Of a stretch of 64,000 nucleotides of DNA, positions 2,149 to 16,724 are shown piece by piece. The stretch comes from a virus. Taxonomy: Duplodnaviria > Heunggongvirae > Uroviricota > Caudoviricetes. The notes below the pieces were generated by a model. The model was not told the DNA's origin. It saw nothing but the letters and a program-made list of their open reading frames with translations, and ran no database searches. The position numbers and the translations under genes were made by a program. Every line of letters starts with the position of its first letter. Within the stretch, counting starts at the first letter, position 1. The stretch lies in the IMG/VR virus record IMGVR_UViG_3300005918_000016; one strand, given 5' to 3'.

Positions 2149-2496
2149 TTGACAGTGCCCTTCATACCTGCTAAAGTCTAACTGTTCCTGCTTGAAACAG
2201 GGAGCTGTTGCGGCAGGAAAGCTCATGCTGATTGGGTAGGAGGTTCTGGTGTGCCCAGATGTTCTGGGGACGAACGCATCAAAACTAACGATCATCCGAG
2301 AGGCATAAAACGAGTGCTAAGAGAGCGATTCCGTGTTAAACGGACCAGTTCCTTGGGATTCGGACGGAAGGAGCAACCGTCATTCGAGCCCTTACCGTTG
2401 GGCCGGAAGTTTACTACCGAGGTACTTGGGACACCAAGATTCGGCACAGCTTCAAACTTGATGCCTGTTACATTTTAGCAGGTTTTAAGGAACGGT
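2143..2496 (+). mobile_element. MITE-like deletion derivative of a TnpB (IS200/605/607-type) element: left end fused to the last ~280 nt (tnpB 3' end, omegaRNA, right end)
   Basis: Left end GGGTACTTGACAGTGCCC...CTTGAAACAGG is shared with the full copy at 55573-55646. Internal junction at 2216/2217 joins the left end directly to tnpB codons (CGRKAHADWVGSAG). Right end terminates ...GGTTTTAAGGAACGGT, as in all four copies. Confidence 0.7.
2217..2496 (+). ncRNA. omegaRNA (reRNA)-like scaffold of TnpB element, orphan copy
   Basis: About 280-nt block conserved in four copies (2217-2496, 19520-19800 minus, 35221-35506, 54133-54430 minus). It overlaps the tnpB 3' end and reaches the right end, which is the expected omegaRNA position. 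Confidence 0.55.
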
Positions 2497-2510
2497 ATGT
2501 GGATTGAAAC
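2497..2510 (+). repeat. 3' portion of the interrupted CRISPR-repeat-like unit (ATGTGGATTGAAAC)
   Basis: Identical to the repeat 3' handle GTGGATTGAAAC immediately after the mini-IS right end. Confidence 0.6.
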
Positions 2511-2628
2511 ACGATGTTGATGTTCCACCTTGATGACCTGACTCAGGAGTGGCCGCTCAGGGGGCTGGATCAACGCTCCTAAAAGTCGGGGCCTTGTGGT
2601 TGTGCGTTTTTGACGGTTAGGAGAACGG

Positions 2629-2895
2629 CTACGCAGCCACTTTCTTTTTAGCGACCTCTTCCTTACCGAACGTCAGGGAATGGGCCTCGATGATCTCCAC
2701 GATCCGGGTACCCTCAGCGATGCGGAGCACTTCCAGCTTCTCGGGGGTGGCTTCCTTCCGGGTCACGTTGAGGACACGCTTGGTGCCACCGTAACCGGGG
2801 ACCGAGATGGTCACCTCCTGATAATCCTCCGACCAGCGGTACGGACCCTTGGTGTAGGAATGACCCTTGGTGATTACGGGTGTAGACTTCGTCAT
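2629..2895 (-). CDS. hypothetical protein (88 aa)
   Basis: ORF in a minus-strand island; no recognisable domain. Confidence 0.35.
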   Translation of the reverse strand: MTKSTPVITKGHSYTKGPYRWSEDYQEVTISVPGYGGTKRVLNVTRKEATPEKLEVLRIAEGTRIVEIIEAHSLTFGKEEVAKKKVAA

Positions 2896-3139
2896 GATAT
2901 CGCTCCTGTTCGGTTTTCAGTTCGTTCAGTACTCTTCTTCAAACTCGACGCTGAGGACTTCCTAGCGTGGCACTCGCATATTGGCCACAAGTTTAAGTCC
3001 AAGTTTCTTGAGGGCCAATATGCGCCTTTTCGTATTCCGCAAGGAAGCGGCGTGAACTATAGCCCCCCCAGTGAGGGGTCTTTACTCATCCTAGCTCTAA
3101 GTCCACTAGAAATACAATCGGCCATATTCTTCTCCTCAA

Positions 3140-3373
3140 CTACAGTGCCCTGGACGGAACGGGAAGCGTCTCTGCGCTGCCGTTTTCCTGCACAGGCACG
3201 CAATTGACACAGAGGATTACCCCGATGGAGTCCCCTTCCCGAATCTCACATTCAGCTTCGCCACACTCCTCATCATCAAACTCGTCGCTATTCCACTCAT
3301 GATGTCCGAAGTGGGGACAAGTGTTGGGGTAAGGACACCGAGGATCTGTAGCATGACTACAAATATATTTCAT
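3140..3373 (-). CDS. Cys-rich small hypothetical protein
   Basis: GGAGG 7 nt upstream of the ATG at 3373 (minus strand). Multiple CxxC-like Cys pairs. Confidence 0.4.
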   Translation of the reverse strand: MKYICSHATDPRCPYPNTCPHFGHHEWNSDEFDDEECGEAECEIREGDSIGVILCVNCVPVQENGSAETLPVPSRAL

Positions 3374-3424
3374 GTGGCCTCCGTGGGGTCTTCGGGAAGA
3401 GGTGTCCAGTGGGTCCACCCCTCA

Positions 3425-4012
3425 TCATTTGTTTTCTTCCGCCAGGAGCAACTCCTGGACCCGCTGGATTTCCTCGGTGGTGTGTATGGTGCCACCGCTG
3501 TTCAGCCGCAGGTAGAACCGCAGCCGCTCTTTACGGGAAAGGTCCACAAACGAAACATGGACATTGGGTAACCGACGCACATCCCGCAGTGACAGGTCAC
3601 GGAACCAGAACGCCTTCCCGTCGTCCATCTCCGCTGGGATCACCCCTTCTAGCCAACGGAGCGTCGCCCGGATCCTCTGTTGTCCGTCGATCACCTCAGC
3701 CGCTGCGTCCAGCCAGGACACCCCCTCTGGAAGATTCTCGTCCGTCTCGTACCTCTGGATGTATATCGGCGGAACCGGACCACCTGTGATCAGGTGCCCT
3801 ATGAAGCGGGACGCCTGCGAGTCCGTCCAGACCAGCCCCCTCTGATAGTCTGGGTTCAGGTCCCAAGGGACCTTGTTTTTCCGCCCAATCGCCCGAACCT
3901 CCTCCAGCAGGAAGTCTAGGGGAAAGTCTAACTGACCAGTTGGCAAGGGCCAGTCCTGGTAGCTACGCAGGGTCGAGTCCACTTCCGGCCTGTTTTTGAC
4001 ATTGCTTCCCAT
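3425..4012 (-). CDS. DUF262 / ParB-like nuclease domain protein (DGQQR motif)
   Basis: DYQRGLVW...IDGQQRIRATLRWL matches the DUF262 signature. Start MGSNVKNRP is preceded on the minus strand by the GAGTAG box, the UTR hairpin and GAGGAG. Confidence 0.65.
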   Translation of the reverse strand: MGSNVKNRPEVDSTLRSYQDWPLPTGQLDFPLDFLLEEVRAIGRKNKVPWDLNPDYQRGLVWTDSQASRFIGHLITGGPVPPIYIQRYETDENLPEGVSWLDAAAEVIDGQQRIRATLRWLEGVIPAEMDDGKAFWFRDLSLRDVRRLPNVHVSFVDLSRKERLRFYLRLNSGGTIHTTEEIQRVQELLLAEENK

Positions 4013-4062
4013 CGTTTCATTCTCCTCAGGGGTCATTTGCCCCTCACTTACTCTACTCAGCG

Positions 4063-4090
4063 GGGTCAGCAGATGATCCCATTGCACGTA
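4063..4090 (-). promoter_or_regulatory. GGGATCATC-N13-GAGTAG promoter-like motif (minus-strand instance) with UTR hairpin at 4028-4045
   Basis: Plus strand reads CTACTC-N13-GATGATCCC; exact 13-nt spacer. Lies upstream of the DUF262 gene start at 4012. Confidence 0.55.
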
Positions 4091-4148
4091 AGGATCTAAG
4101 GAAGGTGTGTCCGAAACGGCCCTTGAGCAAAGACCCCCAGAACTTTTG

Positions 4149-4176
4149 TTGATCATCTCAGATTCCGTTGGAGTAG
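4149..4176 (+). promoter_or_regulatory. TTGATCATC-N13-GAGTAG promoter-like motif
   Basis: Exact 13-nt spacing. Hairpin CGGGGTGGACCCCCG and AAGGAG follow; ATG at 4237. Confidence 0.5.
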
Positions 4177-4236
4177 TGTGGGTAGCCTGAGGAAGGCTCA
4201 CTAACATCGGGGTGGACCCCCGAGAAGGAGAATGGG

Positions 4237-6150
4237 ATGGGGTTTCTTATCTGGATCCTGATGCTTACGGGCATCGGAGCGGTCGGTCTCGGCGTCTGGC
4301 TCATCGCAAGACGCAAAATCTGGATGCTGAAGACGTGGCGAAAGGTCACCCGCAAGGTCACGGACAAGGTCCAGATGATGGACCAACGGGTGACACAGAC
4401 AGACTTCGACGCTCAGGTGCAGGTCGAGATGGACGCTGCGGAGGCGAACGTACCGAAGGGCTTGGGCTTGTTGAGCATCCCGCTCTTCCTGTACGCCCTG
4501 TTGGCCATTTTCTTCAGTTCCATGATGGTGGACGTGCCGCAATCCGGGTTCATGGAACTGGAGCGGAACTTCGGTGGGGCTTCGATGCCCGCAGGCCAGA
4601 TCATCGCTACACAAGGCGAGAACGGCCCCCAGGCAGCGCTGCTGTCCCCCGGTCTCAAGTGGGTCATGCCCTTCATGTACTCCACGAATGAACGGGAGCC
4701 TGTGGTTATCCCGGACGGGATGATCGGCGTGATCACCACCAAGGCGGGCAAGTCCATGCCGGAGGGAATGATCTACGGCCCCAAGTTCACGGACTTCGAC
4801 GGTTTCCTCGACGCCCAGGTCTTCCTGGATCATGAGGACGGGTACAAGGGCCAACAGGTGACAGTGGCCCTGCCGGGAACGTGGAAGTTCCACTCAGGGG
4901 TGTACTCGATGACAGAGGCACCTATGACCAACGTGGAGATGGGCCATGTGATGGTCGTGAAGGCCAACTACGGCGATGTGCCCGAGGAGCGGGCAACCAT
5001 CGAGATCACGGATCTCGTGGAGAAGGAGATTGCCCTGTCCAAGGATGAACTGGAAGCGGCATATCTGGAGGCGGAAGACGCCGAGCAGCGACGGCTGCTG
5101 GCTGCGGGGGTGGCGGAGAAGGACATCAGGATCGACCGCAAGAGCTTGAAGGTGCGAAAGACCAAGATCGTGCTGGTGGAGGTCAAACGGAAGATCCCCG
5201 ACCCGCTGGTCGATGTGGGTGAGGCGGGCATCTGGCGTGATGCGCTGGTCCCCAACAAGTATCCAATGCATCCGTTCGCCCACGAGATGACGGATATCAA
5301 TACGATGCGCCTGCGAATCTCCTACACTCCGCCTGGTGAGGAAGGGGAAGACGACGGGCGGGTCATCGTCCGTAGCAAGGATGGGTACGAGTTCCCGATG
5401 GACATACGCATTGTGTACCATGTGGAACCAATGAACGCCCCTTGGGTCCGTGCAATGGTAGGTGACGACGAGAAGATCGGGGATGTCGTGATGACCCCTA
5501 CGGTCCTCTCAATCTCCCGTGTGCTGGCAGGTCGGTCCAACGTGCTGGACTTCTTCGCAGACCTGGAGGTCCGGCAGAAGGACGCTAAGGATCTCATCGC
5601 CAAGAAGTGCGCCGTGTACGGTGTGACGGTCGATGAGGTACTCATCGGGCGTGTGGGCGACGAGGCTTCCCTGGGTGAACTGATGAAAACCCAGCGGGAC
5701 CGTGAGATCGCCGTGCAGCAGCAGGTCACCTTCGCCGTACAGCAGAAGGCAGCGGAACAGCAGAAGCGGCTGAACAAGACGATGCAGGAGGCGGAGGAGG
5801 AGAAGAAGCTCGCCGCCGCTGCGTATCAGGCCCAGGTCGCCGTACAAAACAAGAAGAAGACCATCACCGACGCTGAGGCCGCTGCCGAGAAGGTGACGAT
5901 TGCAGCCACGGCTGAAGCCGAGCGGATCTTCAAGATCAAGAAGGCGGAAGCGGACGGCTACACCCTGAAGGTTGCCGCCCTTGGTCCCCAGGGGGTGGCA
6001 ATGCTGGAAGCCTTCCTGATCATCTCCGAGGGCAAGATCAAGATCACCCCGAACGTCGCAGTCAGCGGCGGAGGTGCCAACGGGGGCAACAACGCCTTCG
6101 AGGCACTGATGGCCATGATGCTCCAAGAGAAGGCCGGACCCGCCAATTAG
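4237..6150 (+). CDS. SPFH/band-7 flotillin-like membrane protein
   Basis: N-terminal TM helix. Long Ala/Glu/Lys/Gln-rich coiled-coil tail (AEAERIFKIKKAEADGY) typical of the flotillin C-terminus. Confidence 0.55.
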   Translation: MGFLIWILMLTGIGAVGLGVWLIARRKIWMLKTWRKVTRKVTDKVQMMDQRVTQTDFDAQVQVEMDAAEANVPKGLGLLSIPLFLYALLAIFFSSMMVDVPQSGFMELERNFGGASMPAGQIIATQGENGPQAALLSPGLKWVMPFMYSTNEREPVVIPDGMIGVITTKAGKSMPEGMIYGPKFTDFDGFLDAQVFLDHEDGYKGQQVTVALPGTWKFHSGVYSMTEAPMTNVEMGHVMVVKANYGDVPEERATIEITDLVEKEIALSKDELEAAYLEAEDAEQRRLLAAGVAEKDIRIDRKSLKVRKTKIVLVEVKRKIPDPLVDVGEAGIWRDALVPNKYPMHPFAHEMTDINTMRLRISYTPPGEEGEDDGRVIVRSKDGYEFPMDIRIVYHVEPMNAPWVRAMVGDDEKIGDVVMTPTVLSISRVLAGRSNVLDFFADLEVRQKDAKDLIAKKCAVYGVTVDEVLIGRVGDEASLGELMKTQRDREIAVQQQVTFAVQQKAAEQQKRLNKTMQEAEEEKKLAAAAYQAQVAVQNKKKTITDAEAAAEKVTIAATAEAERIFKIKKAEADGYTLKVAALGPQGVAMLEAFLIISEGKIKITPNVAVSGGGANGGNNAFEALMAMMLQEKAGPAN

Positions 6151-6158
6151 TCCCCTGC

Positions 6159-6185
6159 TGCCCCCTTCCCTACGGGGAGGGGGCG
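6159..6185 (+). terminator. GC-rich hairpin after the flotillin gene (possible intrinsic terminator without U-tract)
   Basis: CCCCCTTCCC-TAC-GGGGAGGGGG inverted repeat 10 nt after the stop codon. Confidence 0.3.
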
Positions 6186-6208
6186 GTCCCTGGTCAAGGA
6201 GACCCCTC

Positions 6209-6772
6209 ATGAGCCTCACACTAGAAGACCTCCAAGATCACAAGAAGGTCAGTTGGGATACCTTCCGTTCGGTGCCGCTCGGGTTGCACGAAGGGGAGGA
6301 ACTGGAGATCCGGTTCCTGCTGAACAAGGCTGGGGAGCACAAAATCGGCCTGTTTGACCCACGGCGCCACTGGTGGTCGGTGTGCTCATCCACTACGGAG
6401 GAAGCGGACGCAGTTGTCAGCTTCAACGCCATCCTTGGTGCCGTCCCTACCCCGCTGCAAAGGAAAACCATCACCTTCCAGTCTGAGGGGGACAGCAAAC
6501 CGGATTTCGAAAAGGGTGAGGATGAGGTCGTCAACTACCACCTCACCCTGTACGGCATGTTCGTTGGCAATCTCCGAGTCGGCAAATTCCAGGGTCAGGT
6601 AGAGCACTACGACACGATACTCTTCCCCGAATCAGCGCAGGACGATGCCGCCTATCAGATGCAGTACGGACAGCTTGTGCTCGCCTGTTACGAGTTCGTG
6701 CGGGGCCTCTACGACGCCCACGCTGCCGCTGCCCTTAGCCCCGTGGGATCATCTCCGGCACCCACAGAGTAG
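6209..6772 (+). CDS. hypothetical protein; C-terminus GSSPAPTE overlaps the promoter motif
   Basis: AAGGAG RBS. Stop TAG is the last 3 nt of GAGTAG. Confidence 0.5.
   Translation: MSLTLEDLQDHKKVSWDTFRSVPLGLHEGEELEIRFLLNKAGEHKIGLFDPRRHWWSVCSSTTEEADAVVSFNAILGAVPTPLQRKTITFQSEGDSKPDFEKGEDEVVNYHLTLYGMFVGNLRVGKFQGQVEHYDTILFPESAQDDAAYQMQYGQLVLACYEFVRGLYDAHAAAALSPVGSSPAPTE
6745..6772 (+). promoter_or_regulatory. GGGATCATC-N13-GAGTAG motif
   Basis: Exact consensus; GGAGGTG RBS and ATG at 6795 follow. Confidence 0.55.
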
Positions 6773-6794
6773 ACAGGGTGTATGGAGGTGGCAA

Positions 6795-6995
6795 ATGACC
6801 ACAGAACAGAGTCAGGCACTTCAAGGCGTACAGGGAAAAGTCATCAAAGACATAAAAGTCGGGGAGATGACCTCTTGGTGTGACAGCGGCGAGGTCCAGA
6901 TCCGGTGCAGCGACGGAACGATCATTCGGATCAGTACCATTGCCGATGCCGAGGACAACAGAGCCTTCCTCGCACTGTCCGTCACCGTGCGGTAG
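6795..6995 (+). CDS. hypothetical small protein (66 aa)
   Basis: Motif plus RBS upstream. Confidence 0.45.
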   Translation: MTTEQSQALQGVQGKVIKDIKVGEMTSWCDSGEVQIRCSDGTIIRISTIADAEDNRAFLALSVTVR

Positions 6996-7445
6996 TTGGG
7001 ACTCCGACAACCACCGGGGGTTATCATCGAAGCCCCACGTCCGTCCCTGTGCCTGCACCCGGACGATCATCCTTTATGGGAAACAATGGAACGGCTGGCT
7101 TGGGTTCTTGCGAACAGTCACGGTCTACCCCTCCATTTTGTAGAACCCAAACGTAGACCCCTGTCCGATGGAGCAGCGGGAGTATGCTATTGCCACGAGA
7201 GGCGTATTGCAATCCGGCTCCGGTGTAAGGATCGTGTAGAAGACGGCGGGGGGTGGTGGTCGAAGCCAGACCCCTGGGATCAGATCGTATTGACGGTTGC
7301 CCATGAGGTTGCCCACCTCCGACATCCCAATCACGGAGCAGACTTCAAGGACCTGGAACAACGCCTGTACCGAGAAGCTCAGGAACTGCTAGGGTGTTGG
7401 GATCATCCCCGGCACCCACAGAGTAGACAGGGTGAGGGGGAATGA
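6996..7445 (+). CDS. SprT-like zinc metallopeptidase (HEVAHLRHPNH); the true start is probably the ATG at 7086
   Basis: HExxH...H motif as in SprT/WLM-type domains. Confidence 0.5.
   Translation: MGLRQPPGVIIEAPRPSLCLHPDDHPLWETMERLAWVLANSHGLPLHFVEPKRRPLSDGAAGVCYCHERRIAIRLRCKDRVEDGGGWWSKPDPWDQIVLTVAHEVAHLRHPNHGADFKDLEQRLYREAQELLGCWDHPRHPQSRQGEGE
7399..7426 (+). promoter_or_regulatory. GGGATCATC-N13-GAGTAG motif with hairpin 7436-7450
   Basis: Exact consensus; GAGGAGG RBS; ATG at 7465. Confidence 0.55.
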
Positions 7446-7464
7446 CCCCCGAGGAGGATCTTAA

Positions 7465-8040
7465 ATGAGTGGCTACCCCACACGATATACTGCAGAAGGT
7501 TGTGACAGCCAATGTGTGTACCGTTCCTGTATGTGGCCGGGTGAGGACAAGGGGATCCTTGCCCAGGGCCGGGGCTACACTCGTTATCACAAGAAACCGC
7601 TCCCCGTCTGTATGCAGAGACATCTTCATGGGTGCCCCTATCTGAAACCCAAACCAGACGTTGAGAACGCCCGATGTTGTTACGCACCCAATTACAAACG
7701 TAAGGGCAAGGCTCCCTCAGGATGGCGTACCTGTGAGACCTGCGGAACAATGGTCCCCCTTCAGGTGGCCAAAGCACTTAACAACCTCCCAAAACGGGAT
7801 GGCGTTCCTTGCCTACATGAACAGGTAGAACCGTCCATCATAACTGGTTGGTTTGAGTGCCCCTCTTGTCGTTACAAGCATAAGGGTGTTTTCGATCATC
7901 GGCCTCTCCCCTTTGAGAAACCGAACAAAACACTGCAAGAACTGTATGACACCCTGGAGGTGCGACTTAACCAAACCGCAGAGAGTGAAATGACTCTTGA
8001 AGGCGGATCGGCGGGATCATCTCCCCGACCCACAGAGTAG
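7465..8040 (+). CDS. Cys-rich hypothetical protein; C-terminus GSSPRPTE
   Basis: Several CxxC pairs. Stop sits inside the next GAGTAG box. Confidence 0.5.
   Translation: MSGYPTRYTAEGCDSQCVYRSCMWPGEDKGILAQGRGYTRYHKKPLPVCMQRHLHGCPYLKPKPDVENARCCYAPNYKRKGKAPSGWRTCETCGTMVPLQVAKALNNLPKRDGVPCLHEQVEPSIITGWFECPSCRYKHKGVFDHRPLPFEKPNKTLQELYDTLEVRLNQTAESEMTLEGGSAGSSPRPTE
8013..8040 (+). promoter_or_regulatory. GGGATCATC-N13-GAGTAG motif with hairpin 8049-8065
   Basis: Exact consensus; GGGAGG; ATG at 8077. Confidence 0.55.
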
Positions 8041-8076
8041 TTAAGGTGAGGGGCAAATGACCCCTGGGAGGATGCG

Positions 8077-8331
8077 ATGACCCTGGAGCAACTGTTTGAC
8101 AAGCATGGGAACTGCCCGACCATGGGCGACCCCTACCGGAACAGCAACCCAACCACGGATCTGCTGTTCGATGAGTACGGGGATGTGCTGCCCACGGCCC
8201 TGGCCTTCCTGAGGCGGCTTGTTCAGGAACGGAAGGTGAAGCCGATGTGCGACGCCATCACGATCCTGATGGCTGACCGCTTCGCCTGCAACACGAAGTG
8301 CAACTATAACGCCATCACAATGTGGCGCTAG
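8077..8331 (+). CDS. hypothetical protein (84 aa)
   Basis: Motif plus RBS upstream. Confidence 0.45.
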   Translation: MTLEQLFDKHGNCPTMGDPYRNSNPTTDLLFDEYGDVLPTALAFLRRLVQERKVKPMCDAITILMADRFACNTKCNYNAITMWR

Positions 8332-8439
8332 GAGACCCAATGACGTTCCACAGTGGCATGACCCTGTTGTGCGCTGGGATGGCGGTTGCGGGCTTCGCCA
8401 CCCTGATCATCGGCAACTACCTGGAGAAGGGAGGCTGAT

Positions 8440-8664
8440 ATGACCTGTGTCTTTTGTGGACGGCTGCGTGAGATGGTTCGTCAGCGTAAACTCAAGGAAC
8501 TGGAGCAGCGGGGGCGGACCCCGGACAGGGACTTCGAGGACTACGTCGACAACGAGATGAAGGAGTTGGCCGAGAAGCTCACCTCCATCCTGGACCCGGA
8601 CGGGCCGTGGGTCCGCATGGCGGATCTGCCCAACGGGAGCGCCGACGACGGCGGTGACTACTAG
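8440..8664 (+). CDS. hypothetical protein (74 aa)
   Basis: GGGAGG RBS. Confidence 0.4.
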   Translation: MTCVFCGRLREMVRQRKLKELEQRGRTPDRDFEDYVDNEMKELAEKLTSILDPDGPWVRMADLPNGSADDGGDY

Positions 8665-8700
8665 GGACATGTGGTCAACTTCTCAAAACCAGGAGTCCTG

Positions 8701-9468
8701 ATGAACAAGACAGGAATCGGCTACCTGGACTACTCGTGGAACCCCCTCACGGGATGTTCCCCGGTGTCTGCCGGGTGCCAGAACTGCTGGGCCAAGAAGA
8801 GGGCCACCGAGAACGCTGCAACGGGGTCGAAGTGGTACGACCCGAAGGACCCCTTCAAGCCTACGCTGCACCGGGACAGGCTGGACGAGCCCTCCCACCG
8901 CAAGACGCCGTCAGTAATCGGTGTGGGCTTCATGGGGGACATCTGCCACCCGGATCTCCCGGAGGACGCCCTGGCGTGTGTGCTCCAGTCCTGCAGGATC
9001 GCAAACCAGCACACCTACCTGTGGCTGACGAAACGAGCAGACAGGCTGGGAGAGGCCCTCCTCGGGGTGGACCCGGTCCCGAACGTATGGCTCGGTGTGT
9101 CCGTGGAAAATATGGCGGGCGCTATTGAGCGCCTGCCTATCCTTGCACAACTGGCGGAACGTGGATGGCACACCTGGGTCTCGATGGAGCCGCTGATCGG
9201 GTCGGTGACCCTCGCCCCGTCCCCACACCACAACTGGGATCTTGTCGAGTGGGTGATCGTGGGTTGCGAGTCTGGGGACGACCGGAGGCCGATGGACCCC
9301 GCTTGGGTGACCCAGCTTCATGGCGAATGCGACCACTTTGGCATCCCCTTCTTCCTCAAGCAGATGGAGGTGGGGGGCAAAGTCCAGGCGCACCCGACAC
9401 CCTACCTCAACGGTGTACAGCACACCGAGATCCCCGACGCAATCCAGAAGCACCTGGGAACGTCCTAA
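8701..9468 (+). CDS. phage Gp37/Gp68 family (DUF5131) protein
   Basis: WNPLTGCSPVSAGCQNCWA... N-terminal Cys motif and overall pattern typical of PF07505. Confidence 0.65.
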   Translation: MNKTGIGYLDYSWNPLTGCSPVSAGCQNCWAKKRATENAATGSKWYDPKDPFKPTLHRDRLDEPSHRKTPSVIGVGFMGDICHPDLPEDALACVLQSCRIANQHTYLWLTKRADRLGEALLGVDPVPNVWLGVSVENMAGAIERLPILAQLAERGWHTWVSMEPLIGSVTLAPSPHHNWDLVEWVIVGCESGDDRRPMDPAWVTQLHGECDHFGIPFFLKQMEVGGKVQAHPTPYLNGVQHTEIPDAIQKHLGTS

Positions 9469-9968
9469 TGAGCGCCCCGGTCTATCTCTCAGCGTATTGC
9501 GACGCTAGTTATTACTATGTGACTGGGCAGGCCGGGTGGGGCGCATGGCTACGGGACAGCAAGACACGGGTCTTGGTGGCAGCACCGATCCCGTCATCGG
9601 TGGATTGGCTCAAGGGCAACACACAGGTGGAGTTGTTCGCTGTCTACCAGACTGTCCTCTGCGCCTTAAAACATCTGGACAGCGAGACCGGGACGCATCT
9701 CGTTGTGAAGACGGACAACAAAGGGGTCGTTGGGTGGTTTAAAAAGGGGATGGGGTGCGGGGATCGGGAGACGCAGGTAGTAACCGAGACCCTCGCCGCC
9801 GTTGAGGCTGCGGGCGTGACTCTGATTGTGAAGTGGGTGGAAAGCCACCAGCCGAGGAATCGCAACGTGCAGGCATACCTGAACACACGGGTTGATGAGT
9901 TGGCCCGCCGAGCAATGATCCAGGGTGAGCGAGTGTTCTGGAAGAAGCCTATCCGGGAAGCGGTCTGA
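9469..9968 (+). CDS. RNase HI-like
   Basis: DASY...E(LFAV)...TDNKG...H...D catalytic pattern of RNase H. TAATG start/stop overlap with the upstream gene. Confidence 0.65.
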
Positions 9969-10003
9969 TGAAGGACGATCATCAACGGATACCTGAGAAG
10001 GAA

Positions 10004-10031
10004 GAGATCATCCTGGTGTCCGGTTGAGTAG
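10004..10031 (+). promoter_or_regulatory. GAGATCATC-N13-GAGTAG motif with hairpin 10040-10056
   Basis: 13-nt spacer; AAAGGAG; ATG at 10074. Confidence 0.5.
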
Positions 10032-10073
10032 TACAGGTGAGGGGCAAAGGACCCCTGACAAAGGAGCCCAACG

Positions 10074-10343
10074 ATGACGACATCACTGAACCCCGTTGAC
10101 TGGGACGACGACCATGTGGTCGTTATTTCCTTCCTCCACAACCATGGAAGCAACTCCCGGTACCTGACTGCCAACGAACAATGGTATGTGTTTTGCCGTG
10201 GTAACGGATTCGGAAACTGTACTTCCGAACAACTGGAACACAGCGGTTGGAACTGGTCACACGTCAGGGATTCAGACGATACAGGATATGCAAGGATGGC
10301 CAACTGTGTGCGAGAACTGGTGCCCGAGGCGGAACAGAAATAA
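10074..10343 (+). CDS. hypothetical protein
   Basis: Motif plus RBS. Confidence 0.4.
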   Translation: MTTSLNPVDWDDDHVVVISFLHNHGSNSRYLTANEQWYVFCRGNGFGNCTSEQLEHSGWNWSHVRDSDDTGYARMANCVRELVPEAEQK

Positions 10344-10359
10344 ACGAAAAGGAGAGAGA

Positions 10360-11017
10360 GATGTCCAAAGACAAAGTGAACTGGAAGCTCCGGTACAAGG
10401 AAACGGCTCAGGCACTTGCTGCCCTGAAACGGGCGGCGTTGATCCAGGGGACGCAGGACCATCTGATCGAGTTGGAACGGACCAAAATCCGGGAGGCTGC
10501 TGTATCCCTTTCCCAGGAGGCTGACAAGGCAAGGGCAATGGGGAAGACCCTCCAGACGACAGTCCTGGATGCTCTCAAGGGCATGGCGACACAGAGCGAC
10601 ACGTTGGGGACCTTAGCCAACTCTCTTGCCACCGACCAGTTCGGCAACAAAGGGTCGGCAGATGCCGTTAAGGAAGCCCTGATGACTATCGGGGTCCTTA
10701 CAGAGGAACGAGACCAGGCGACCGCTCAGGTTGAGGATCTGACCGAGGCTCTCCGGGAGGAGACCAGGGCACGGGTAACCCTGTCCGTGGAACTGAAGGA
10801 TCTCTACCGTAAGGGCGTGCTCGGTACGGACACGGCGAAGATCCTGAACAGACACTTCGGTTCAGCCCTGCGGGCGAGTAATCGTCATCTTCAGGCGCTC
10901 TGGCCTTCCACCGAAACACAGGAAGGACTCCGTCACCTGTTCAATTGGGCCAAGGGTGCCTTGGCCCGTCAGGCAGACCACGAAAAGGGTTTGTCTGAAG
11001 AGGAGACTACCACATGA
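10360..11017 (+). CDS. coiled-coil hypothetical protein
   Basis: AAAAGGAGAG RBS before ATG 10360. Confidence 0.45.
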
Positions 11018-11325
11018 AAGTCTTGGCCGTGTTCCAGCATGTCACCTATGCACACCTTCAAGCGGCTAACTTCCTCGGTGTTGCCGCAACACCCGAAGCG
11101 GCCAAAGCCATCATGCAGAAAGACATCGACGCATTGGTGGCTGACGGTGCCACTCTGCACAAGGTAACTGCTGAGGCCACTCCCAACAAGGCCATATGGG
11201 CGGAGCGGCATGAGCAGCAACTTGGTCTGGACCCCAGCGATTTACTCGTCCTGAACGCCGATGACCACAACGTGTGTCACGTTGCCCAAGAGTTTGAGTT
11301 AGAAGGTTGGGTACCTGACGCTTAA
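11014..11325 (+). CDS. hypothetical protein
   Basis: ATGA overlap with the upstream stop. Confidence 0.4.
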   Translation: MKVLAVFQHVTYAHLQAANFLGVAATPEAAKAIMQKDIDALVADGATLHKVTAEATPNKAIWAERHEQQLGLDPSDLLVLNADDHNVCHVAQEFELEGWVPDA

Positions 11326-11332
11326 GAAGGAA

Positions 11333-11360
11333 GGGATCATCTCACCACCCTGTTGAGTAG
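11333..11360 (+). promoter_or_regulatory. GGGATCATC-N13-GAGTAG motif with hairpin 11369-11385
   Basis: Exact consensus; GGGAGG; ATG at 11399. Confidence 0.55.
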
Positions 11361-11398
11361 TCCAAGTGAGGGGCAAACGTCCCCTGGGAGGCTCACCG

Positions 11399-11788
11399 AT
11401 GGACATGCAAAAGTTTGTAGGGAAACCCTGCACCGTGTACGAGTGGGTGGGAGAGATGGAGTGGCAGCAGGAGGGATGGAGCCAGGGGGGGCCTCTCCCC
11501 GTCCCGTGGACTGTCACCACGGCGGAAGAAGGCGGTCAGCAAGCCCCAGAAGTGCGGAAGGCTGTCGGGGTCATCCGGGAGTGTTCCCTCATGGGGGACA
11601 ACCCCCGACTGCTGTGCATGGTGGAGTTGTCCGATGGCACCCTCTGGCGAGGGGACTCTCAGGATCACAACTTTGACATTGAGTTAGAGAAGGGAGCGGA
11701 CGGGAGTCTGACGCTGACGTGGGGAAGCCCCGATGGAAGCGACACGCTGTGGAAGGACCTGTGGGTACACATCCCCGCTGCCTACTAG
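11399..11788 (+). CDS. hypothetical protein
   Basis: Motif plus RBS. Confidence 0.45.
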   Translation: MDMQKFVGKPCTVYEWVGEMEWQQEGWSQGGPLPVPWTVTTAEEGGQQAPEVRKAVGVIRECSLMGDNPRLLCMVELSDGTLWRGDSQDHNFDIELEKGADGSLTLTWGSPDGSDTLWKDLWVHIPAAY

Positions 11789-11802
11789 GAGCACGACAAA
11801 AA

Positions 11803-11830
11803 GGGATCATCTCACCGACCTGCTGAGTAG
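11803..11830 (+). promoter_or_regulatory. GGGATCATC-N13-GAGTAG motif with hairpin 11839-11856
   Basis: Exact consensus; AAGGAG; ATG at 11875. Confidence 0.55.
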
Positions 11831-11874
11831 TTAAAGTGAGGGGGCAAATGACCCCTGACAAGGAGACCAACGCA

Positions 11875-12510
11875 ATGAGCAACCCTCAGATAGATACCCT
11901 GGTCAAACGGATCGCCGCCGCTCGGGACGCTTATTACAACGGCTCCCCCATCATGACGGATGTGGTTTACGACGCCCTGGAAGATCAGCTTCGAGCGCTC
12001 GACCCCAAGCACCCGGAACTCCTCAAGGTCGGTGCAGCCCCCGCCCCGGTCAAGGGTGCATGGCCGAAGGTCCGGCACAGCATCCCAATGTCCAGCCTGA
12101 ACAAGGCCCAGGTCGAAACGGATCTGGCTGCGTGGTTCGCCTCGGTGAGCAACGCCGATGTCGCTGTGATGGACAAACTTGATGGTATCTCGTGTTTTGA
12201 TGGGGCTACCCCACTGCATCTGGCTAATGGGGAAACTGTCCCCCTTCAAGAGGTCGTAGAAAAGGGACTGATGCCCCAAGTTTTAACCTGGGATCCTGAA
12301 AGGGGGGTCACCACTGAACAAGTCGTGGCCGTCAAAGACAACGGCATCAAGGATAACTGGGTTCGGGTTACCTTTGAAACGGATCCCCTGCATCTGGGAT
12401 CCTCTGTTGTGGTGACTGAAGACCATCTCTTCTATGTCAAGGATAAAGGGTGGGTTGAAGCTAAAGATCTCACGGGTGAAGACGTGCTTGACTGTACCGA
12501 ACAACCCTGA
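11875..12510 (+). CDS. ligA: NAD-dependent DNA ligase N-terminal fragment (adenylation KLDG) fused to split-intein N-half (~105 aa)
   Basis: N-terminus matches the LigA Ia/adenylation region up to KLDGIS. Then CFDGATPLHL...TEDHLF...DVLDC is Hint-N-like (Cys1, TxxH block) and runs to a stop at 12510. Confidence 0.7.
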   Translation: MSNPQIDTLVKRIAAARDAYYNGSPIMTDVVYDALEDQLRALDPKHPELLKVGAAPAPVKGAWPKVRHSIPMSSLNKAQVETDLAAWFASVSNADVAVMDKLDGISCFDGATPLHLANGETVPLQEVVEKGLMPQVLTWDPERGVTTEQVVAVKDNGIKDNWVRVTFETDPLHLGSSVVVTEDHLFYVKDKGWVEAKDLTGEDVLDCTEQP

Positions 12511-13531
12511 TAGTTTAGACCCCAGGATACCCCATCTAGCGGGTGTCCTGGGGGGCCTTATGTTATTAGGGGACGCTTGGTTTGTTGAACATTTCAGGAA
12601 AACCAGAAAACGGGGTAACACGATAGCTGGTCGTCAATGGACCTTGCGAGTAAAGCAAGAAAAACCTGTCCTGACAAAAATTTGTGACCGCTGTGGACAT
12701 AAAGAGATCACCTTATCGAGTCCATTATCTCGGGTTCGGCACGTGGTTAAACAAGCTGTAGAACAGGAACAGAAGTGGGGTCTGCATCTTTGCCCCAAAT
12801 GTGCTCGTAAGGAGGCACGCAAAAAGGCAGCTATTACGAGAGCAACGCCCGGATGGAGTGAGAACTTTGGTCGTCAAGTAGCTTTGGGTCTGGCTTTAAT
12901 ACCGTCAGACAAAAATGCAGAACGATATGAAAGAGCACGTCAAACCCGTATTGCCACCTATTCCCGCATGACACCGAAGGAACGACGCAGAGGTGTCGTC
13001 AAGCAATGGCAAACAATGACGGAGGAGGCTAAACAACGGAGAGCAAAAAAAATAGGCGAGGGTGCCAAAAAAGTTTGGGCCTCATTAACGCCAGAACAAA
13101 GAAACCAACGGGTTGCTCGGATGATCAAGGGGCTCCCTCGATCAAAGATATCGGATGATTTTCGACAACATCTGATAGATGCGAGATTGTATGCAGGCTT
13201 TGTAAGTGAACAAGTCATTTCAGGTTTCACCGTTGATGAGGCTAATGAGACCTTGAAAGTGATCCTTGAGTTCTTTGGGGACTACTATCATTGTAACCCG
13301 AGTAACCCCAAATTCTCAGACCCTGAGTTCTACAACACAACAATCCGAATGACATCGGCCCAAAAATGGCAGTATGATCGCCGTCGTTTAGCGGGACTCA
13401 GAAAAGTAGGGTACCGTATTCTAGTGGTATGGGAAAGTGACTGGCGTAAAAACCCTGAAGATGTGTTGAGCAGAGTGCGGACATTTCTGAATCAGTTTAA
13501 AACGGGATCATCTGCGGACCCCACAGAGTAG
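12434..13531 (+). CDS. free-standing putative homing endonuclease (LAGLIDADG-like HLAGVLGGLMLLGDA plus Vsr/PD-(D/E)xK-like C-terminal domain)
   Basis: Lies between the two intein halves in another frame. C-terminus GDYYHCNP...ILVVWESDW resembles Vsr-type endonuclease folds. Ends GSSADPTE inside a promoter motif. Confidence 0.5.
   Translation: MSRIKGGLKLKISRVKTCLTVPNNPDSLDPRIPHLAGVLGGLMLLGDAWFVEHFRKTRKRGNTIAGRQWTLRVKQEKPVLTKICDRCGHKEITLSSPLSRVRHVVKQAVEQEQKWGLHLCPKCARKEARKKAAITRATPGWSENFGRQVALGLALIPSDKNAERYERARQTRIATYSRMTPKERRRGVVKQWQTMTEEAKQRRAKKIGEGAKKVWASLTPEQRNQRVARMIKGLPRSKISDDFRQHLIDARLYAGFVSEQVISGFTVDEANETLKVILEFFGDYYHCNPSNPKFSDPEFYNTTIRMTSAQKWQYDRRRLAGLRKVGYRILVVWESDWRKNPEDVLSRVRTFLNQFKTGSSADPTE
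13504..13531 (+). promoter_or_regulatory. GGGATCATC-N13-GAGTAG motif located inside the fractured ligase locus
   Basis: Exact consensus; GAGG; ATG at 13563. Confidence 0.55.
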
Positions 13532-13562
13532 ACCTAGTGACGGTCATCAAACGAGGTCTACA

Positions 13563-15428
13563 ATGCGAGTTGCATCCGTTGAGAAAGTACCGGGACCCAG
13601 AAGAGCCTTTGATCTGACAATCCGCAATACGTCCTGTTACTTTGTGGGGCCTGGAATTTTAGCACACAACTGTGGGATGAGATACGAAAACAGGAAGCTA
13701 GTGCAGGCGCTGACACGGGGCGACGGGACGATAGGCGAGGATATCACCCGGAACGTCCTGCTGATGAAGGGTGCAGTCAAGGTACTGCCCCCGACGTTAC
13801 CGGATGGCACCCCCACCCCAGACGATGTGTGGGTGCGGGCCGAGGTTGTGGTGACCCACGATGACTTCGTCACCCACTTCAAGGGCGAATCCAACCCCCG
13901 TAACACGGCGAGCGGCACTGCGAAACGTCAAACTGACAACAGCAAATGTGCCTTCCTGACGGTTATCTGCTATCAACTCCTGCCCGGTGGTCGCCCGATG
14001 GCGTCCAAGAGCGCCGAGTTGAAGGCCCTGGCCACGATGGGCTTCCAGGTACCCCGCTGGGGTGAGTACAAGGGACTGGCAGCAGTGGAGGCCCTCTACC
14101 AGGACTACATCGCCACCGTCAGGAAGAGCCTGGGTTACGATATCGACGGGCTGGTGATCGAGGTGGCTGACGCCAACGCCCGTGCGATGCTTGGGGAACT
14201 GAACAACCGCCCCAAGGGTGCCTGCGCTTATAAGTTTCCTCATGAGTCCAAGCCGACCACGCTGCGGAGCATCCGTTGGCAGGTAGGCAACAGCGGGCGC
14301 ATCACCCCGGTGGCCGAATTTGACGTTGTGAACCTCGCAGGGGCGAACGTCAAACAGGCGAGCCTTCACAACATCAGCAACATCGAAGGGCTGTGGGGCA
14401 AAGCCACTGTTCCGGTACCCGGCGACGCAATTCTCGTTTCTCGCAGAAATGATGTTATCCCCTATGTAGAGGAAGTCCTGAACAAGTTCGGTACAGGCAC
14501 GGGACTCCGCACCCCGACCCAGTGCCCCTCCTGCCAGGGAGCCTTGGTGCGGGACGGCGAGTACCTTGTGTGCCGCAGCGAGGAGTGCCCCGCCCAGGCA
14601 ACCGGGGCCATCAGACGCTGGGTCAAGAAGCTCGGTGTCCTACACGTTGGCGAGACCCTGATCGACGCAATGGTGGATGCGTTCCCTTTCACCCTCACCG
14701 AGGAAGTGTTTGAAGTCACCTTCGGCGTAAAGAAGGATGACGTGAAGACCCTCCCGGCAGCGGATCAGGAACGGATACGCAACGCCCCAATGGACATCGC
14801 TGACCTCTACAACCTGGACCTGGACGAGGTCGCCTCCCTGGAGTTGAGCGGACGGCGTGTCGGCGGCTCGGCGGACAAAGCCCTCAGGAACCTTAACGCC
14901 AAGAAGACGCTGCCCCTGCACGTCCTGATAGGGAGCCTGGGTATCCCCCTGATCGGGCGCAGCATGGCCAAGGTGGTTGTGGACGCTGGATACACCACCC
15001 TGAACCTGCTCTTCAAGGCCAAGGTGCATGTTCCCATCGTCACCAGGGGCAAGACCCTCCCGGCAGTTGCCAGCATCCCTGGAATGGGGGACACGAAAGC
15101 GCTGGCCTTCGTGACGGGATTTGCTGCCAAGGCCGGGCTGATCGTCAAGTTGCGGGCCACGCAAGACCTTGGCGGAGCCGACATCACCATCCAGGACATC
15201 TCCGGGCCGTTGCTCGGGATGACCTTTTGCCTGACTGGCACCCGTGAACCCGCCCTGCTCGATGCTATCGAAAAGGCGGGTGGCACAATGAAGGGCAGCG
15301 TGTCCAAGAAACTATCCTACCTGATCGCCCTGGACCCGGACAGTACCTCGGGCAAAGCGAAAAAGGCCAAGCAGTACGGCGTGAAGGTGATCGGCTTGGA
15401 CGAGGCGTACAAGCTGGCGGGGGTGTGA
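13563..15428 (+). CDS. ligA: split-intein C-half (36 aa, ...GILAHN) fused to the NAD-dependent DNA ligase C-terminal extein (Cys4 Zn finger, HhH, BRCT)
   Basis: MRVASVEKVPGPRRAFDLTIRNTSCYFVGPGILAHN|CGMRYENRKLV...TRGDGTIGEDIT continues the LigA sequence after KLDG. CPSCQG...CRSEECPAQ zinc finger. C-terminal BRCT-like region. Confidence 0.75.
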   Translation: MRVASVEKVPGPRRAFDLTIRNTSCYFVGPGILAHNCGMRYENRKLVQALTRGDGTIGEDITRNVLLMKGAVKVLPPTLPDGTPTPDDVWVRAEVVVTHDDFVTHFKGESNPRNTASGTAKRQTDNSKCAFLTVICYQLLPGGRPMASKSAELKALATMGFQVPRWGEYKGLAAVEALYQDYIATVRKSLGYDIDGLVIEVADANARAMLGELNNRPKGACAYKFPHESKPTTLRSIRWQVGNSGRITPVAEFDVVNLAGANVKQASLHNISNIEGLWGKATVPVPGDAILVSRRNDVIPYVEEVLNKFGTGTGLRTPTQCPSCQGALVRDGEYLVCRSEECPAQATGAIRRWVKKLGVLHVGETLIDAMVDAFPFTLTEEVFEVTFGVKKDDVKTLPAADQERIRNAPMDIADLYNLDLDEVASLELSGRRVGGSADKALRNLNAKKTLPLHVLIGSLGIPLIGRSMAKVVVDAGYTTLNLLFKAKVHVPIVTRGKTLPAVASIPGMGDTKALAFVTGFAAKAGLIVKLRATQDLGGADITIQDISGPLLGMTFCLTGTREPALLDAIEKAGGTMKGSVSKKLSYLIALDPDSTSGKAKKAKQYGVKVIGLDEAYKLAGV

Positions 15429-15430
15429 CG

Positions 15431-16051
15431 ATGGGTGAGGTCGTACCAGGACCAGGGACGCTTCAGTTTGCGCTGGACAGCATAAATGATCCGGTGTTGC
15501 AAAAGGTTAAGGACCAGCAGCCCCTCACCCCTGAAGACCAAAATCATCTGAGGGAAAAGATGGGGCTTCCTGGTCCTGAGCATGTGCCTTGGGGTCATGG
15601 CCCCTGGAAACGGGACGACCCGGATATGCTCGCCCTTGATTATTTGAAGGACACTACGGTTTTTGGCTCCTGTGATAAGGAGACAGATGAATACCTGGAG
15701 AACACAATCTGGGAGTGGTACCGAGGTGTGAGACTCGCATTCCAAGAGTGTGGGTGCCAAAACTGCATGCAGATTGGAGAGGCAAAAACGATGACAGCGC
15801 CCGCTGCAATTGCCCGTGGTGAAAGGCACTACGCAGCCGTAATGAACAAACGCCTGCCACGGGGGTGGAGAAAACAGCCTAAAGTGCTGGCCCTCATTGC
15901 CAAGTTTGACCAGGAACTGAAGGCAGCAGGCAACGATCTCATGCGGACGGCACGGGGGGACAACTACGCTGGGGATACAGCACCTGAGGCAACCGGGCCA
16001 ATCGGAAAGGAATGGACCCTTCGGGAATGGCCTCGGGAGTACAGTTGGTGA
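15431..16051 (+). CDS. hypothetical protein, paralog of 16725-17348
   Basis: Shares GPGTLQFA...CGCxNC...ARGERxxAxxMNK...GWRKxPxVLAxI with the downstream paralog. Confidence 0.5.
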   Translation: MGEVVPGPGTLQFALDSINDPVLQKVKDQQPLTPEDQNHLREKMGLPGPEHVPWGHGPWKRDDPDMLALDYLKDTTVFGSCDKETDEYLENTIWEWYRGVRLAFQECGCQNCMQIGEAKTMTAPAAIARGERHYAAVMNKRLPRGWRKQPKVLALIAKFDQELKAAGNDLMRTARGDNYAGDTAPEATGPIGKEWTLREWPREYSW

Positions 16052-16662
16052 TGAACACTGAGGCTACAAACGTCACCAGCCAGTGGTTGGGACAGAACTG
16101 GCAGACCTTTCAGGAAGCGGGACATTACGGTCTCCGTACCTGGGCGGTGCCCATCCCTTCAAGTGATGTGGAGGACGTGATCCAGGACACGGCCATACAA
16201 TTCATTCATGTCGATGCTCTTCGCTTCTTCATTCACCGGGAAGGGGAGGAACTGAAAAGCTCTCTGACCTTAGACCGACTAGGTCTGTTTATAGCCCGTA
16301 AGGCCATCAAGTGGCTCCAACGAGCCGGTCAAGACGTAGTTCCCCGTAGCAGCCTGGGGGCACAGACAAAATGGGAGTGGCAAGGCAAAACCACAGCACC
16401 ACAGCCGCCCACATCGTATGAAGTGGACCCGTCGAACAGCCAATGGACAGCGGGTTGTCAAATGGAGCTTGTGGAGTCCGTTTGCACTCAGATCTTTCCG
16501 GACAACGCTGAACGGTACGTGGCTATCATCAAACGAAGGGTTGAAGGTTACAGCCAGACTGAGATAGCCGCAGAGTTCGGTTCTACTAAGGGTCGGATCG
16601 GTCGTGTTCTCCAGCGTGTTCGTCGGGAGTTTCAGCCCTTCCGGGAGGCCCTTTGCAGTTGA
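16051..16662 (+). CDS. ECF-type sigma-70 family factor (regions 2 and 4)
   Basis: DVEDVIQDTAIQFI resembles ECF region 2. C-terminal RRVEGYSQTEIAAEFGSTKGRIGRVLQRVRREF resembles the region 4.2 HTH. ATGA overlap with the upstream stop. Confidence 0.55.
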   Translation: MNTEATNVTSQWLGQNWQTFQEAGHYGLRTWAVPIPSSDVEDVIQDTAIQFIHVDALRFFIHREGEELKSSLTLDRLGLFIARKAIKWLQRAGQDVVPRSSLGAQTKWEWQGKTTAPQPPTSYEVDPSNSQWTAGCQMELVESVCTQIFPDNAERYVAIIKRRVEGYSQTEIAAEFGSTKGRIGRVLQRVRREFQPFREALCS

Positions 16663-16663
16663 C

Positions 16664-16691: not shown

Positions 16692-16724
16692 TGTGGATGA
16701 GGCACTAGACTTAGAGGATGACTG

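Follow-up and report, generated by a model that had tools for sequence, protein, structure and literature searches.

What is the short G/C hairpin that recurs in front of genes of a huge phage, between a transcription signal and the ribosome-binding site (RBS), and does it act as RNA or as DNA? The question is raised by a 64,000-nucleotide (nt) stretch of IMG/VR virus record IMGVR_UViG_3300005918_000016 (Caudoviricetes), referred to here at its full length as the window. An earlier note on this DNA had listed six such hairpins behind GAGTAG motifs and had taken their shared position and sequence to suggest a leader-RNA structure (a processing site, a regulator-binding site or a translation-control element) rather than chance. 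We find that the hairpin is a real, selected, non-coding and promoter-coupled leader element in an uncultivated huge phage, and that it is strictly tied in place and orientation to a phage-specific promoter box; the three roles on the note's list are ones that computation alone cannot narrow. The known kinds to compare it with are composite cassettes of promoter and stem-loop, and 5' leader hairpins.

The SPFH-domain protein of the window (4237-6150) is encoded on Joint Genome Institute (JGI) contig Ga0208769_1000001, which is 528,260 bp long, and a complete circular "huge phage" of ~528 kb has been described from Ace Lake, Antarctica (Panwar et al., 2020, PMC7416419); this is the genome of which the window is part. 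It has no close relative among cultured phages: megablast of 4000-14000 found no match there, while tblastn gave only distant matches to the ligase and none at all for a 756-aa open reading frame (ORF). Related contigs were gathered from IMG/VR and JGI metagenomes by pattern scans that left the 3' arm and the loop of the hairpin unspecified; these returned contigs of up to 217 kb, many of them out of Ace Lake samples. Pooled with the window, they give 129 distinct promoters, 39 with the canonical hairpin, and for the comparison of leader designs the family loci comprise these 39 together with 75 promoters that have no hairpin.

All six hairpins listed in the earlier note are present where it placed them. 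The element, GGGG-CAAA(N)GA-CCCC, has a G/C stem of 4-5 base pairs and a loop of 5-7 nt, which in the window is CAAATGA three times and CAAAGGA, CAAACGT and AATGA once each. Written as AGGGG-N7-CCCCT with no more than one mismatch, the copies lie at 4028-4044 (minus strand), 7435-7451, 8049-8065, 10040-10056, 11369-11385 and 11840-11856. This bare pattern is not rare (nine found, 5.7 expected), but GGGGCAAANGNCCCC occurs five times where 0.18 matches are expected and GAGTAG-N3-12-AGGGG eight times where 0.43 are expected, and none of 100 shuffles reached either count, so that the element is well beyond chance, as had been claimed. The copies start 8-9 nt past GAGTAG, with the A of the stem at 8 nt (N5 plus GTG), and the 3' arm is followed by GAGGAGG, GGGAGG or (A)AGGAG and then by ATG.

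The single copy on the minus strand, in the cassette at 4010-4080, runs from GGGATCATC (4080-4072) through GAGTAG (4058-4053) and the hairpin (AGGGG 4044-4040, CAAATGA 4039-4033, CCCCT 4032-4028) to the Shine-Dalgarno (SD) sequence GAGGAG (4027-4022) and the ATG (4012-4010) of a 195-aa GmrSD_N-domain protein. The others are on the plus strand. At 7399-7467, GGGATCATC (7399-7407) and GAGTAG (7421-7426) precede GGGGG (7436-7440), AATGA (7441-7445) and CCCCC (7446-7450), with the SD GAGGAGG at 7451-7457 and ATG at 7465, the start of a 191-aa Cys-rich ORFan. The cassette at 8013-8079 has GGGATCATC at 8013-8021, GAGTAG at 8035-8040 (its TAG doubling as the stop codon of the upstream ORF), AGGGG at 8049-8053, CAAATGA at 8054-8060, CCCCT at 8061-8065, the SD GGGAGG at 8066-8071 and ATG at 8077. 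Two cassettes have loops without an ATG: the one at 10004-10076, which begins with GAGATCATC (10004-10012) and continues with GAGTAG (10026-10031), AGGGG (10040-10044), CAAAGGA (10045-10051), CCCCT (10052-10056), the SD (A)AGGAG (~10061-10066) and ATG (10074), and the one at 11333-11401, with GGGATCATC (11333-11341), GAGTAG (11355-11360), AGGGG (11369-11373), CAAACGT (11374-11380), CCCCT (11381-11385), the SD GGGAGG (11386-11391) and ATG (11399). The sixth, at 11803-11877, consists of GGGATCATC (11803-11811), GAGTAG (11825-11830), AGGGGG (11839-11844), CAAATGA (11845-11851), CCCCT (11852-11856), the SD (A)AGGAG (~11860-11865) and ATG (11875), and opens the N-terminal fragment of an NAD-dependent DNA ligase. 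A degenerate cassette, absent from the earlier note's list, is found at 35961-36029 on the plus strand, with GGGATCATC (35961-35969), GAGTAG (35983-35988), a stem of only three pairs (GGG 35998-36000, CCC 36008-36010) around ACAAAGA (36001-36007), the SD AAGGAG (36015-36020) and ATG (36027).

Two "looser versions" that the earlier note had added do not belong to the family. The one at 4205-4219 is a different hairpin (GGGGTGGACCCC), which lies 29 nt past GAGTAG and shares its leader with a 5'-proximal AGCCT/AGGCT hairpin; the one near 63640-63655 is CCCC-AGACT-GGGG (63645-63657), of opposite polarity and behind a GGAGTAG that has no GATCATC box. The latter stretch (63606-63657) has instead a variant box, TTGACA-N14-GGAGTAG. 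The GAGTAG motif itself is real but had been under-described, since it is one half of a larger bipartite box, GGGATCATC-N13-GAGTAG (GATCATC-N13-GAGTAG), of which the window holds 21 copies where 0.06 are expected. Twenty of these are on the plus strand and one on the minus strand (with a divergent pair at 4078/4151), and all 21 are intergenic and oriented toward the next ORF. GAGTAG is followed by five variable bases and then by a conserved GT(G). Seven copies run on into a hairpin, namely the six canonical ones and the degenerate one at 35998-36010. The 14 other copies, GATCATC-N13(14)-GAGTAG without the canonical hairpin, are spread over 4151-61113 on the plus strand (starts at 4151, 6747, 13506, 16666, 18374, 25065, 28494, 38109, 39987, 41989, 47549, 56075, 58436 and 61088); most of them read GAGTAG-N5-GT(G/A)(A)GGAGG-N5-8-ATG, a very short leader whose first bases are the SD, and those at 4151 and 18374 have other hairpins.

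Protein genes begin 20-60 nt past the box, and in a related contig (L036) a GAGTAG box stands 16 nt upstream of a tRNA-Lys gene, so the box is not a translation signal. Sites of the sigma-70 type are not enriched in 3000-19000 (three found, 5.3 expected), and the same region has no excess of intrinsic terminators. A search for the box with GTGAGG behind it, covering genomes from 185,579 species of bacteria and archaea, gave one match, which lies inside a coding sequence and was judged to be chance; the motif strings GAGTAG and GATCATC led to nothing relevant in the literature. The box is a phage-specific signal for transcription, and its arrangement of GGGATC, 16 nt and GAGTAG is compatible with a sigma-type -35/-10 pair. 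A 216-aa ORF on the plus strand (16012-16662) is a candidate phage sigma factor that might read these GGGATC-N16-GAGTAG promoters, judging from matches to Sigma70_r4_2 (the region 4 helix-turn-helix, E=9e-4), Sigma70_ECF (E=0.014) and a region-2 stretch of CnrH (E=0.06), the ECF-type matches being weak.

Some further observations concern the box and its leaders. Three upstream ORFs stop at the TAG of GAGTAG (boxes at 6745-6772, 8013-8040 and 13504-13531) and read the box in the same frame, so that their C-termini all end in G-S-S-x-x-P-T-E-stop. Three promoters in related contigs (L010 at ~3848; L045 at ~1666, minus strand; L036 at 10956) have a common leader start, GAGTAG-N5-GTGTTGACA, which may be a third leader class; this start includes a TTGACA, which cannot serve the tRNA as its -35 box because the tRNA follows only 3 nt later. 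The tRNA in question, the tRNA-Lys at 10998-11073 of L036, which starts 16 nt past its GAGTAG box, belongs to a group of 13 tRNA genes in 11 kb (1703-11073).

How tightly the hairpin is bound to this box can be seen across the pooled promoters. The canonical hairpin occupies a constant place and orientation in 39 of 129; its G-run starts 9 nt past GAGTAG in 32 of the 39 copies, and in 34 the distance from the 3' arm to the start codon is 10-18 nt. There are four exceptions, with the start codon 27-137 nt away, and in these the hairpin stays by the promoter and not by the RBS. In 596 kb of related phage DNA, every one of the 31 distinct occurrences of GGGCAAATGACCC (with at most one substitution) has an AGTAG no more than 22 nt upstream of it on its own strand. 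The hairpin is kept in six of six orthologous gene pairs, and the proteins encoded downstream of hairpin promoters are otherwise unrelated to each other. Across ten orthologous promoter pairs it has diverged at 9 of 149 sites (0.06), as against 23 of 95 (0.24) between GAGTAG and the stem and 26 of 150 (0.17) in the 15 nt past the stem. The hairpin is thus under purifying selection, diverging three to four times more slowly than its flanks, and what had been said of six sites in the window, that position and sequence are conserved between a transcription signal and the RBS, holds for the 39 related copies. The loop takes part in this conservation: around the consensus CAAATGA (variants CAAACGA, CAAAGGA and CGAATGA), A is found at columns 13-15 in 31-37 of the 39 copies, G17 in 39 and A18 in 38, and among the seven positions conservation is lowest at the T of the apparent ATG (29 of 39).

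The promoters that carry the hairpin are also alike in their spacers. GACC occurs in the 13-nt spacer of 24 of 39 hairpin promoters and of 13 of the 90 others (p=2e-7), and spacer position 12 is C in 95% of the former and 64% of the latter; because of these shared features the hairpin promoters form a distinct subclass, something beyond plain promoters with a hairpin attached. The enrichment takes the form (C)GACC(C), as for example at 8022-8034, 11812-11824 and 4071-4059 (minus strand) of the window. Hairpin promoters are clustered, with six copies at 4-12 kb of the window, adjoining a locus of clustered regularly interspaced short palindromic repeats (CRISPR) and cas genes, and the genes behind them are mostly ORFans, along with the GmrSD_N-domain protein, a Macro-domain protein and the ligase fragment. 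The length of the downstream protein does not separate hairpin from non-hairpin promoters. A scan for other loops behind GAGTAG-N5-GTG-NN-GGGG gave nothing new, and GGGGCAAATGACCCC alone, scanned against IMG/VR, had only chance matches outside the lineage (coding sequence, a classical terminator and one repeat array) except in L108. This phage contig, which has no detectable protein similarity to the lineage, shows the same 20-nt hairpin start behind a sigma-70-like promoter (minus strand, ~4788-4802): TTGACA-N18-TAGGAT-tcaa-GTGAGGGGCAAATGACCCCT...AAGGAGG-ATG, with GTGAGGGGCAAATGACCCCT at the distance expected for the 5' end of a transcript.

On the structure itself, the purifying selection speaks for the leader element that had been proposed, while a stem at the RNA level is only partly supported; the covariation analysis that the earlier note called for finds changes that preserve pairing, although the formal score, given below, is weak. 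A five-pair helix has 80.5% of its stem cells paired, compared with 39-66% when the 3' partner is slid by one to three columns. The pair that closes the loop is GC in 33 copies, AU in three, GU in two and something else in one, and at least two lineages show the double change from G-C to A-U there. Variants such as GGGA...TCCC, CGGG...CCCG, GGGC...GCCC and GGGGG-AAATGA-CCCCC keep four to five pairs, including through shifts of register, and in one related locus (L057+2928) the loop is replaced by a longer helix on the same base. Rfam 15 has no match at gathering score anywhere in the window, and the two chance-level hits in 3900-12100 lie off the hairpins.

The leaders without the canonical hairpin follow designs of their own. 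In 40 of the 75 hairpin-less promoters the SD comes directly after GTG, and among the long leaders that lack the canonical element 16 of 25 show an unrelated hairpin (-5 kcal/mol or lower) starting within 8 nt of GTG, compared with 34% of random 28-mers from the same loci (p=0.002). Bacterial mRNA is stabilised against 5'-end-dependent decay when its 5' end carries, or lies close to, a hairpin, an RBS or a bound protein (PMC3997798), and the leaders of this phage, which begin with either an RBS or a hairpin, have an arrangement known to protect mRNAs in this way.

The reading that we favour, and would give an even chance of being correct, is that of a stem-loop in the 5' leader RNA, coupled to the promoter, which protects the 5' end and whose loop is probably bound by a factor. 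The hairpin would then make up the initial ~20 nt of the leader in mRNAs from a subclass comprising ~30% of the phage's own promoters, the promoter being GGGATC(ATC)-N13-GAGTAG and the start most likely lying in the conserved GTG(A), 6-9 nt past GAGTAG. We place the start there because the distance from a -10 box to the start is usually 6-8 nt and because the GTG is conserved; with transcription starting in GTG(A), the RNA would begin with the hairpin. It would open as (G)UGA-GGGG-CAAA(N)GA-CCCC, with the SD and start codon following within 0-10 nt, and its stem of 3-5 G-C pairs would sequester both the 5' end and the SD-like GAGGGG that the promoter imposes, a sequestration that may protect the transcript from 5'-end-dependent decay and insulate the true RBS. 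The loop would be read by a trans-acting factor, probably encoded by the phage, which would place mostly ORFan genes under a common post-transcriptional control; such a factor is suggested by the loop, six of whose seven positions are conserved between unrelated genes and between diverged phages. A more specific and clearly less probable idea is that the heptaloop hairpin is the recognition element of a phage-encoded antiterminator, translational regulator or endoribonuclease that defines a temporal class of genes over dozens of units. Such a system would be "boxB-like" or an "operator-hairpin," working genome-wide rather than at one or two sites. In a variant of this idea, which starts from the near-inverted likeness of the hairpin to the -35 box, the same phage sigma-like protein would be engaged by the nascent RNA or by the DNA site, and promoter escape or class switching would be controlled in this way.

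Several observations weigh against the favoured reading of a protective leader RNA. Formal support from covariation is weak (the score is 0.163, shuffles give 0.121, and 9 of 500 shuffles score as high), and related sequences inflate scores of this kind; the three core G-C pairs say nothing either way, because they never vary. The folding z-scores of single copies are unremarkable (-2 to +1) and uninformative, since G- and C-runs survive shuffling, and a strand-asymmetry test of G-U against A-C is confounded by differences of register and is equally uninformative. The place of the 5' arm in the RNA follows from the predicted start, which the tRNA case bounds only to within 16 nt past GAGTAG. 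A passive stabiliser would need no conserved loop, and no candidate binding protein was identified. The GACC feature of the spacer could point to recognition at the level of DNA, and AAATGACCCC, comprising the loop and the 3' arm, is like AGATGATCCC, the reverse complement of the -35 box, at eight of ten positions.

These last two points lead to the view that the hairpin is a site in double-stranded DNA, at about +3 to +20, where it would be an operator, or a second contact, for a class-specific regulator or for the reader of the -35 box and would switch the promoter subclass. We think this rather unlikely. Its distance to the -10-like box is fixed, the hairpin promoters are a subclass with GACC-enriched spacers and a marked preference for C12, base-specific contacts with DNA would easily account for a conserved loop, and variants of the GGATGATCCC type match the -35 complement better still. 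The arms nevertheless change together within one contig (GGGG/CCCC alongside GGGA/TCC) and shifts of register keep the pairing, which is unexpected of fixed half-sites, and the "spacer" between them is asymmetric and better conserved than the outer half-site positions, unlike that of dimer operators. The same place in the leader holds unrelated hairpins elsewhere, the region upstream does not co-vary with the hairpin in an own-versus-swapped test (p=0.26), and, leaving the G- and C-runs aside, we estimate that the resemblance at eight of ten positions would arise by chance with a probability of roughly 0.02-0.03. All hairpin promoters (e.g., 8013-8065) contain (C)AAATGACCCC, which is nearly the -35 box in inverted form. 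Two other ideas were tried and rejected: long-range base pairing, within read-through transcripts, between the hairpin and the -35 RNA, which appears in two of six minimum-energy folds but is broken by loop variants and shows no co-variation in the duplex energies of that own-versus-swapped test, and an antisense promoter made from the inverted -35-like half, for which inspection found no GAGTAG-like box at the right distance. The remaining alternatives turn on what surrounds the hairpin. T4-type phages carry cassettes known as PeSLs (promoter-early stem-loop cassettes), which flank ORFans and in which an upstream stop codon is combined with a promoter, a GGGG...CCCC stem-loop, an SD and a start codon (Arbiol et al., 2010, PMC2839356; Comeau et al., 2014, PMC4122927), and these are the nearest described system. 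A mobile promoter cassette of this sort would attenuate or insulate read-through from upstream and supply homology for the shuffling of ORFans, with no action on its own transcript; we regard this as a distinctly unlikely account of the present hairpin, a little more so than a DNA site. The likeness is considerable, as both are repeated intergenic cassettes of stop, promoter, G-run/C-run stem-loop, SD and start in front of mostly small ORFans: the upstream stop is often the TAG of GAGTAG, the GGG(G)-loop-CCC(C) stem-loop of 39 of the 129 promoters corresponds to the polyG...polyC stem-loop of the PeSLs, the promoters at 6747 and 7401 are direct repeats (almost identical over their first 34 nt), and in the one indel looked at, window 6192-7397 is absent from Ace Lake contig L060 with its right-hand break exactly at the 7398 promoter. 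That evidence amounts to a single boundary, however, and two defining features of PeSLs are missing here, because the promoter is not sigma-70-like and the stem-loop lies downstream of the -10-like box without terminator features. PeSLs have a strong early promoter of that type (host -35/-10 consensus, AT-rich upstream) where this phage has its own GGGATCATC-N13-GAGTAG, and their stem-loop, which serves as a terminator or attenuator of upstream transcription, lies between -35 and -10 or over the -10 where this one starts 9 nt downstream of GAGTAG. Intrinsic termination is unlikely because the stem is only 3-5 bp and no U-tract follows it; the 3' arm is succeeded by GGGAGG, GACAAGGAG or GTAAAGGAG, and a terminator scan of 3000-19000 picked up none of the hairpins. 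Nor would a need for recombination homology explain a conserved 7-nt loop next to a spacer, an N5 and an SD region that diverge.

The other alternative is an upstream ORF or leader peptide, or else the decaying relic of a duplicated start, in which GAGGGG would be an SD, the loop ATG a start codon and the stem incidental. The loop ATG, 5 nt past GAGG, is present in 29 of 39 copies; in the window two such ATGs are in frame with the gene and two lead to a TGA that overlaps the real ATG; and in the 6747 promoter GGAGGTGGCAAATGACC is the real SD and start codon. But the ATG is missing from 10 copies and its T is the least conserved position of the loop, the frames are random (of the 29 ATGs, 11 share the frame of the gene, 10 read through its start codon in another frame and 8 reach a stop after 3-9 codons) and differ between orthologues, and every copy has a strong downstream SD and start codon of its own; nor would a relic evolve more slowly than its flanks. 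We tested and rejected this explanation, which the earlier note had not raised and to which hardly any probability remains, and the loop ATG is non-coding. The 6747 promoter (6747-6800), for its part, has no 3' arm, and its genuine SD and start codon resemble the 5' half and loop of the hairpin.

Returning to the protective leader hairpin, we compared it with three other systems besides the PeSLs. The 5'-terminal stabilisers, either stem-loops or RBSs, of ompA, papA, aprE and SP82/ermC (reviewed in PMC3997798) share with it the place at or next to the (here predicted) 5' end, the choice between hairpin and SD in leader design, and a short G-C rich stem; they act regardless of the sequence of the loop, whereas here the loop is conserved. 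The boxB of lambdoid nut sites is similar in its stem of ~5 G-C rich base pairs, its position just downstream of early-type promoters and its A-rich loop, the conserved sequence of which suggests, in both, recognition by a protein. It has, however, a GNRA-like pentaloop (GAAAA/GAAGA/GACAA) in place of the 7-nt CAAANGA loop, and it occurs twice per genome as opposed to dozens of times, each before a unit of one or two genes. The lambda N system reads through downstream terminators, of which 3000-19000 has no excess, and no boxA or N-like protein turned up, although no search was aimed at boxA or at proteins with an arginine-rich motif. By analogy, the element may work like a 5' stabiliser hairpin or like a protein-binding hairpin of the boxB or MS2 type. 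The start-associated sequences (SAS) and extended SAS (ESAS) of Cluster K mycobacteriophages (Pope et al., 2011, PMC3203893) are a conceptual analogue only: they too are conserved, oriented repeats at the starts of a subset of genes and are kept by orthologues, half of the SAS have the added inverted repeat, and their function is presumed to be regulatory (PMC3203893). The SAS is a 13-bp sequence, GGGATAGGAGCCC, at the start codon that includes the SD, and the ESAS is a 17-bp inverted repeat upstream of it; neither is related in sequence to the hairpin, and the SAS is anchored to the start codon while the hairpin is anchored to the promoter box.

The organisation of transcription in huge uncultivated phages is almost unknown, and the window offers a clear regulatory "grammar": a phage-specific bipartite box before nearly every transcription unit; two main leader designs (an SD at the 5' end, or the conserved hairpin and then an SD), along with longer leaders that often have an unrelated 5'-proximal hairpin; and a hairpin-marked subclass on mostly ORFan genes by the CRISPR-Cas locus. 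If the hairpin does bind a factor, the regulon could be read directly from metagenome sequence, and the hairpin could serve as bait RNA for the regulator; if it is only a 5' stabiliser, it would still be a compact natural promoter-leader part from a lineage that has no cultured member.

The neighbourhood of the hairpin cluster has features of its own. The CRISPR array occupies window 1-1114 (and is found in related contig L137 as well), with at least 13 repeats of GTCGCATCCTCTAACAAAGGATGCGTGGATTGAAAC at a spacing of 71-77 bp and, at 957-1114, degenerate repeats. A related contig has type I-C cas genes (Csd1, Cas7) immediately upstream of the array, and array and cas genes match the phage-borne I-C CRISPR system mentioned in PMC7416419. 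Just past the stop of the SPFH gene (6158-6186) is a CCCCCTTCCC-TACG-GGGAGGGGG stem-loop without a U-tract, which may be a 3' end structure and which forms the left boundary of the indel relative to L060; the segment missing from that contig (its 3456-3469) is ~1.2 kb long and holds two or three small ORFs and the 6747 promoter. The NAD-dependent DNA ligase is split into two ORFs (11875-15428). Its N-fragment ends in a Hint-like module (...KLDGIS/CFDG...; Hint E=6e-4), its C-fragment begins ...GILAHN/C and continues with adenylation, OB and BRCT domains, and between them lie a 365-aa endonuclease-like ORF (12434-13531; MTES_1575/DUF559) and a box at 13506, so that the locus looks like a split intein with a homing-endonuclease gene.

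Two ORFs resembling TnpB/Cas12f-TNB are found at 23331-24761 and 34067-35491. Related loci whose sequences match 34053-35506 match 54133-55647 as well, with the orientation reversed, and related copies occur in several other contigs; a ~1.45 kb element thus appears to be present in the window as an inverted pair. Similarly, a segment of ~355 bp in several related loci matches two stretches of the window at ~86-92%, namely 2140-2497 and, in reversed orientation, 19520-19873, which would therefore form an inverted repeat.

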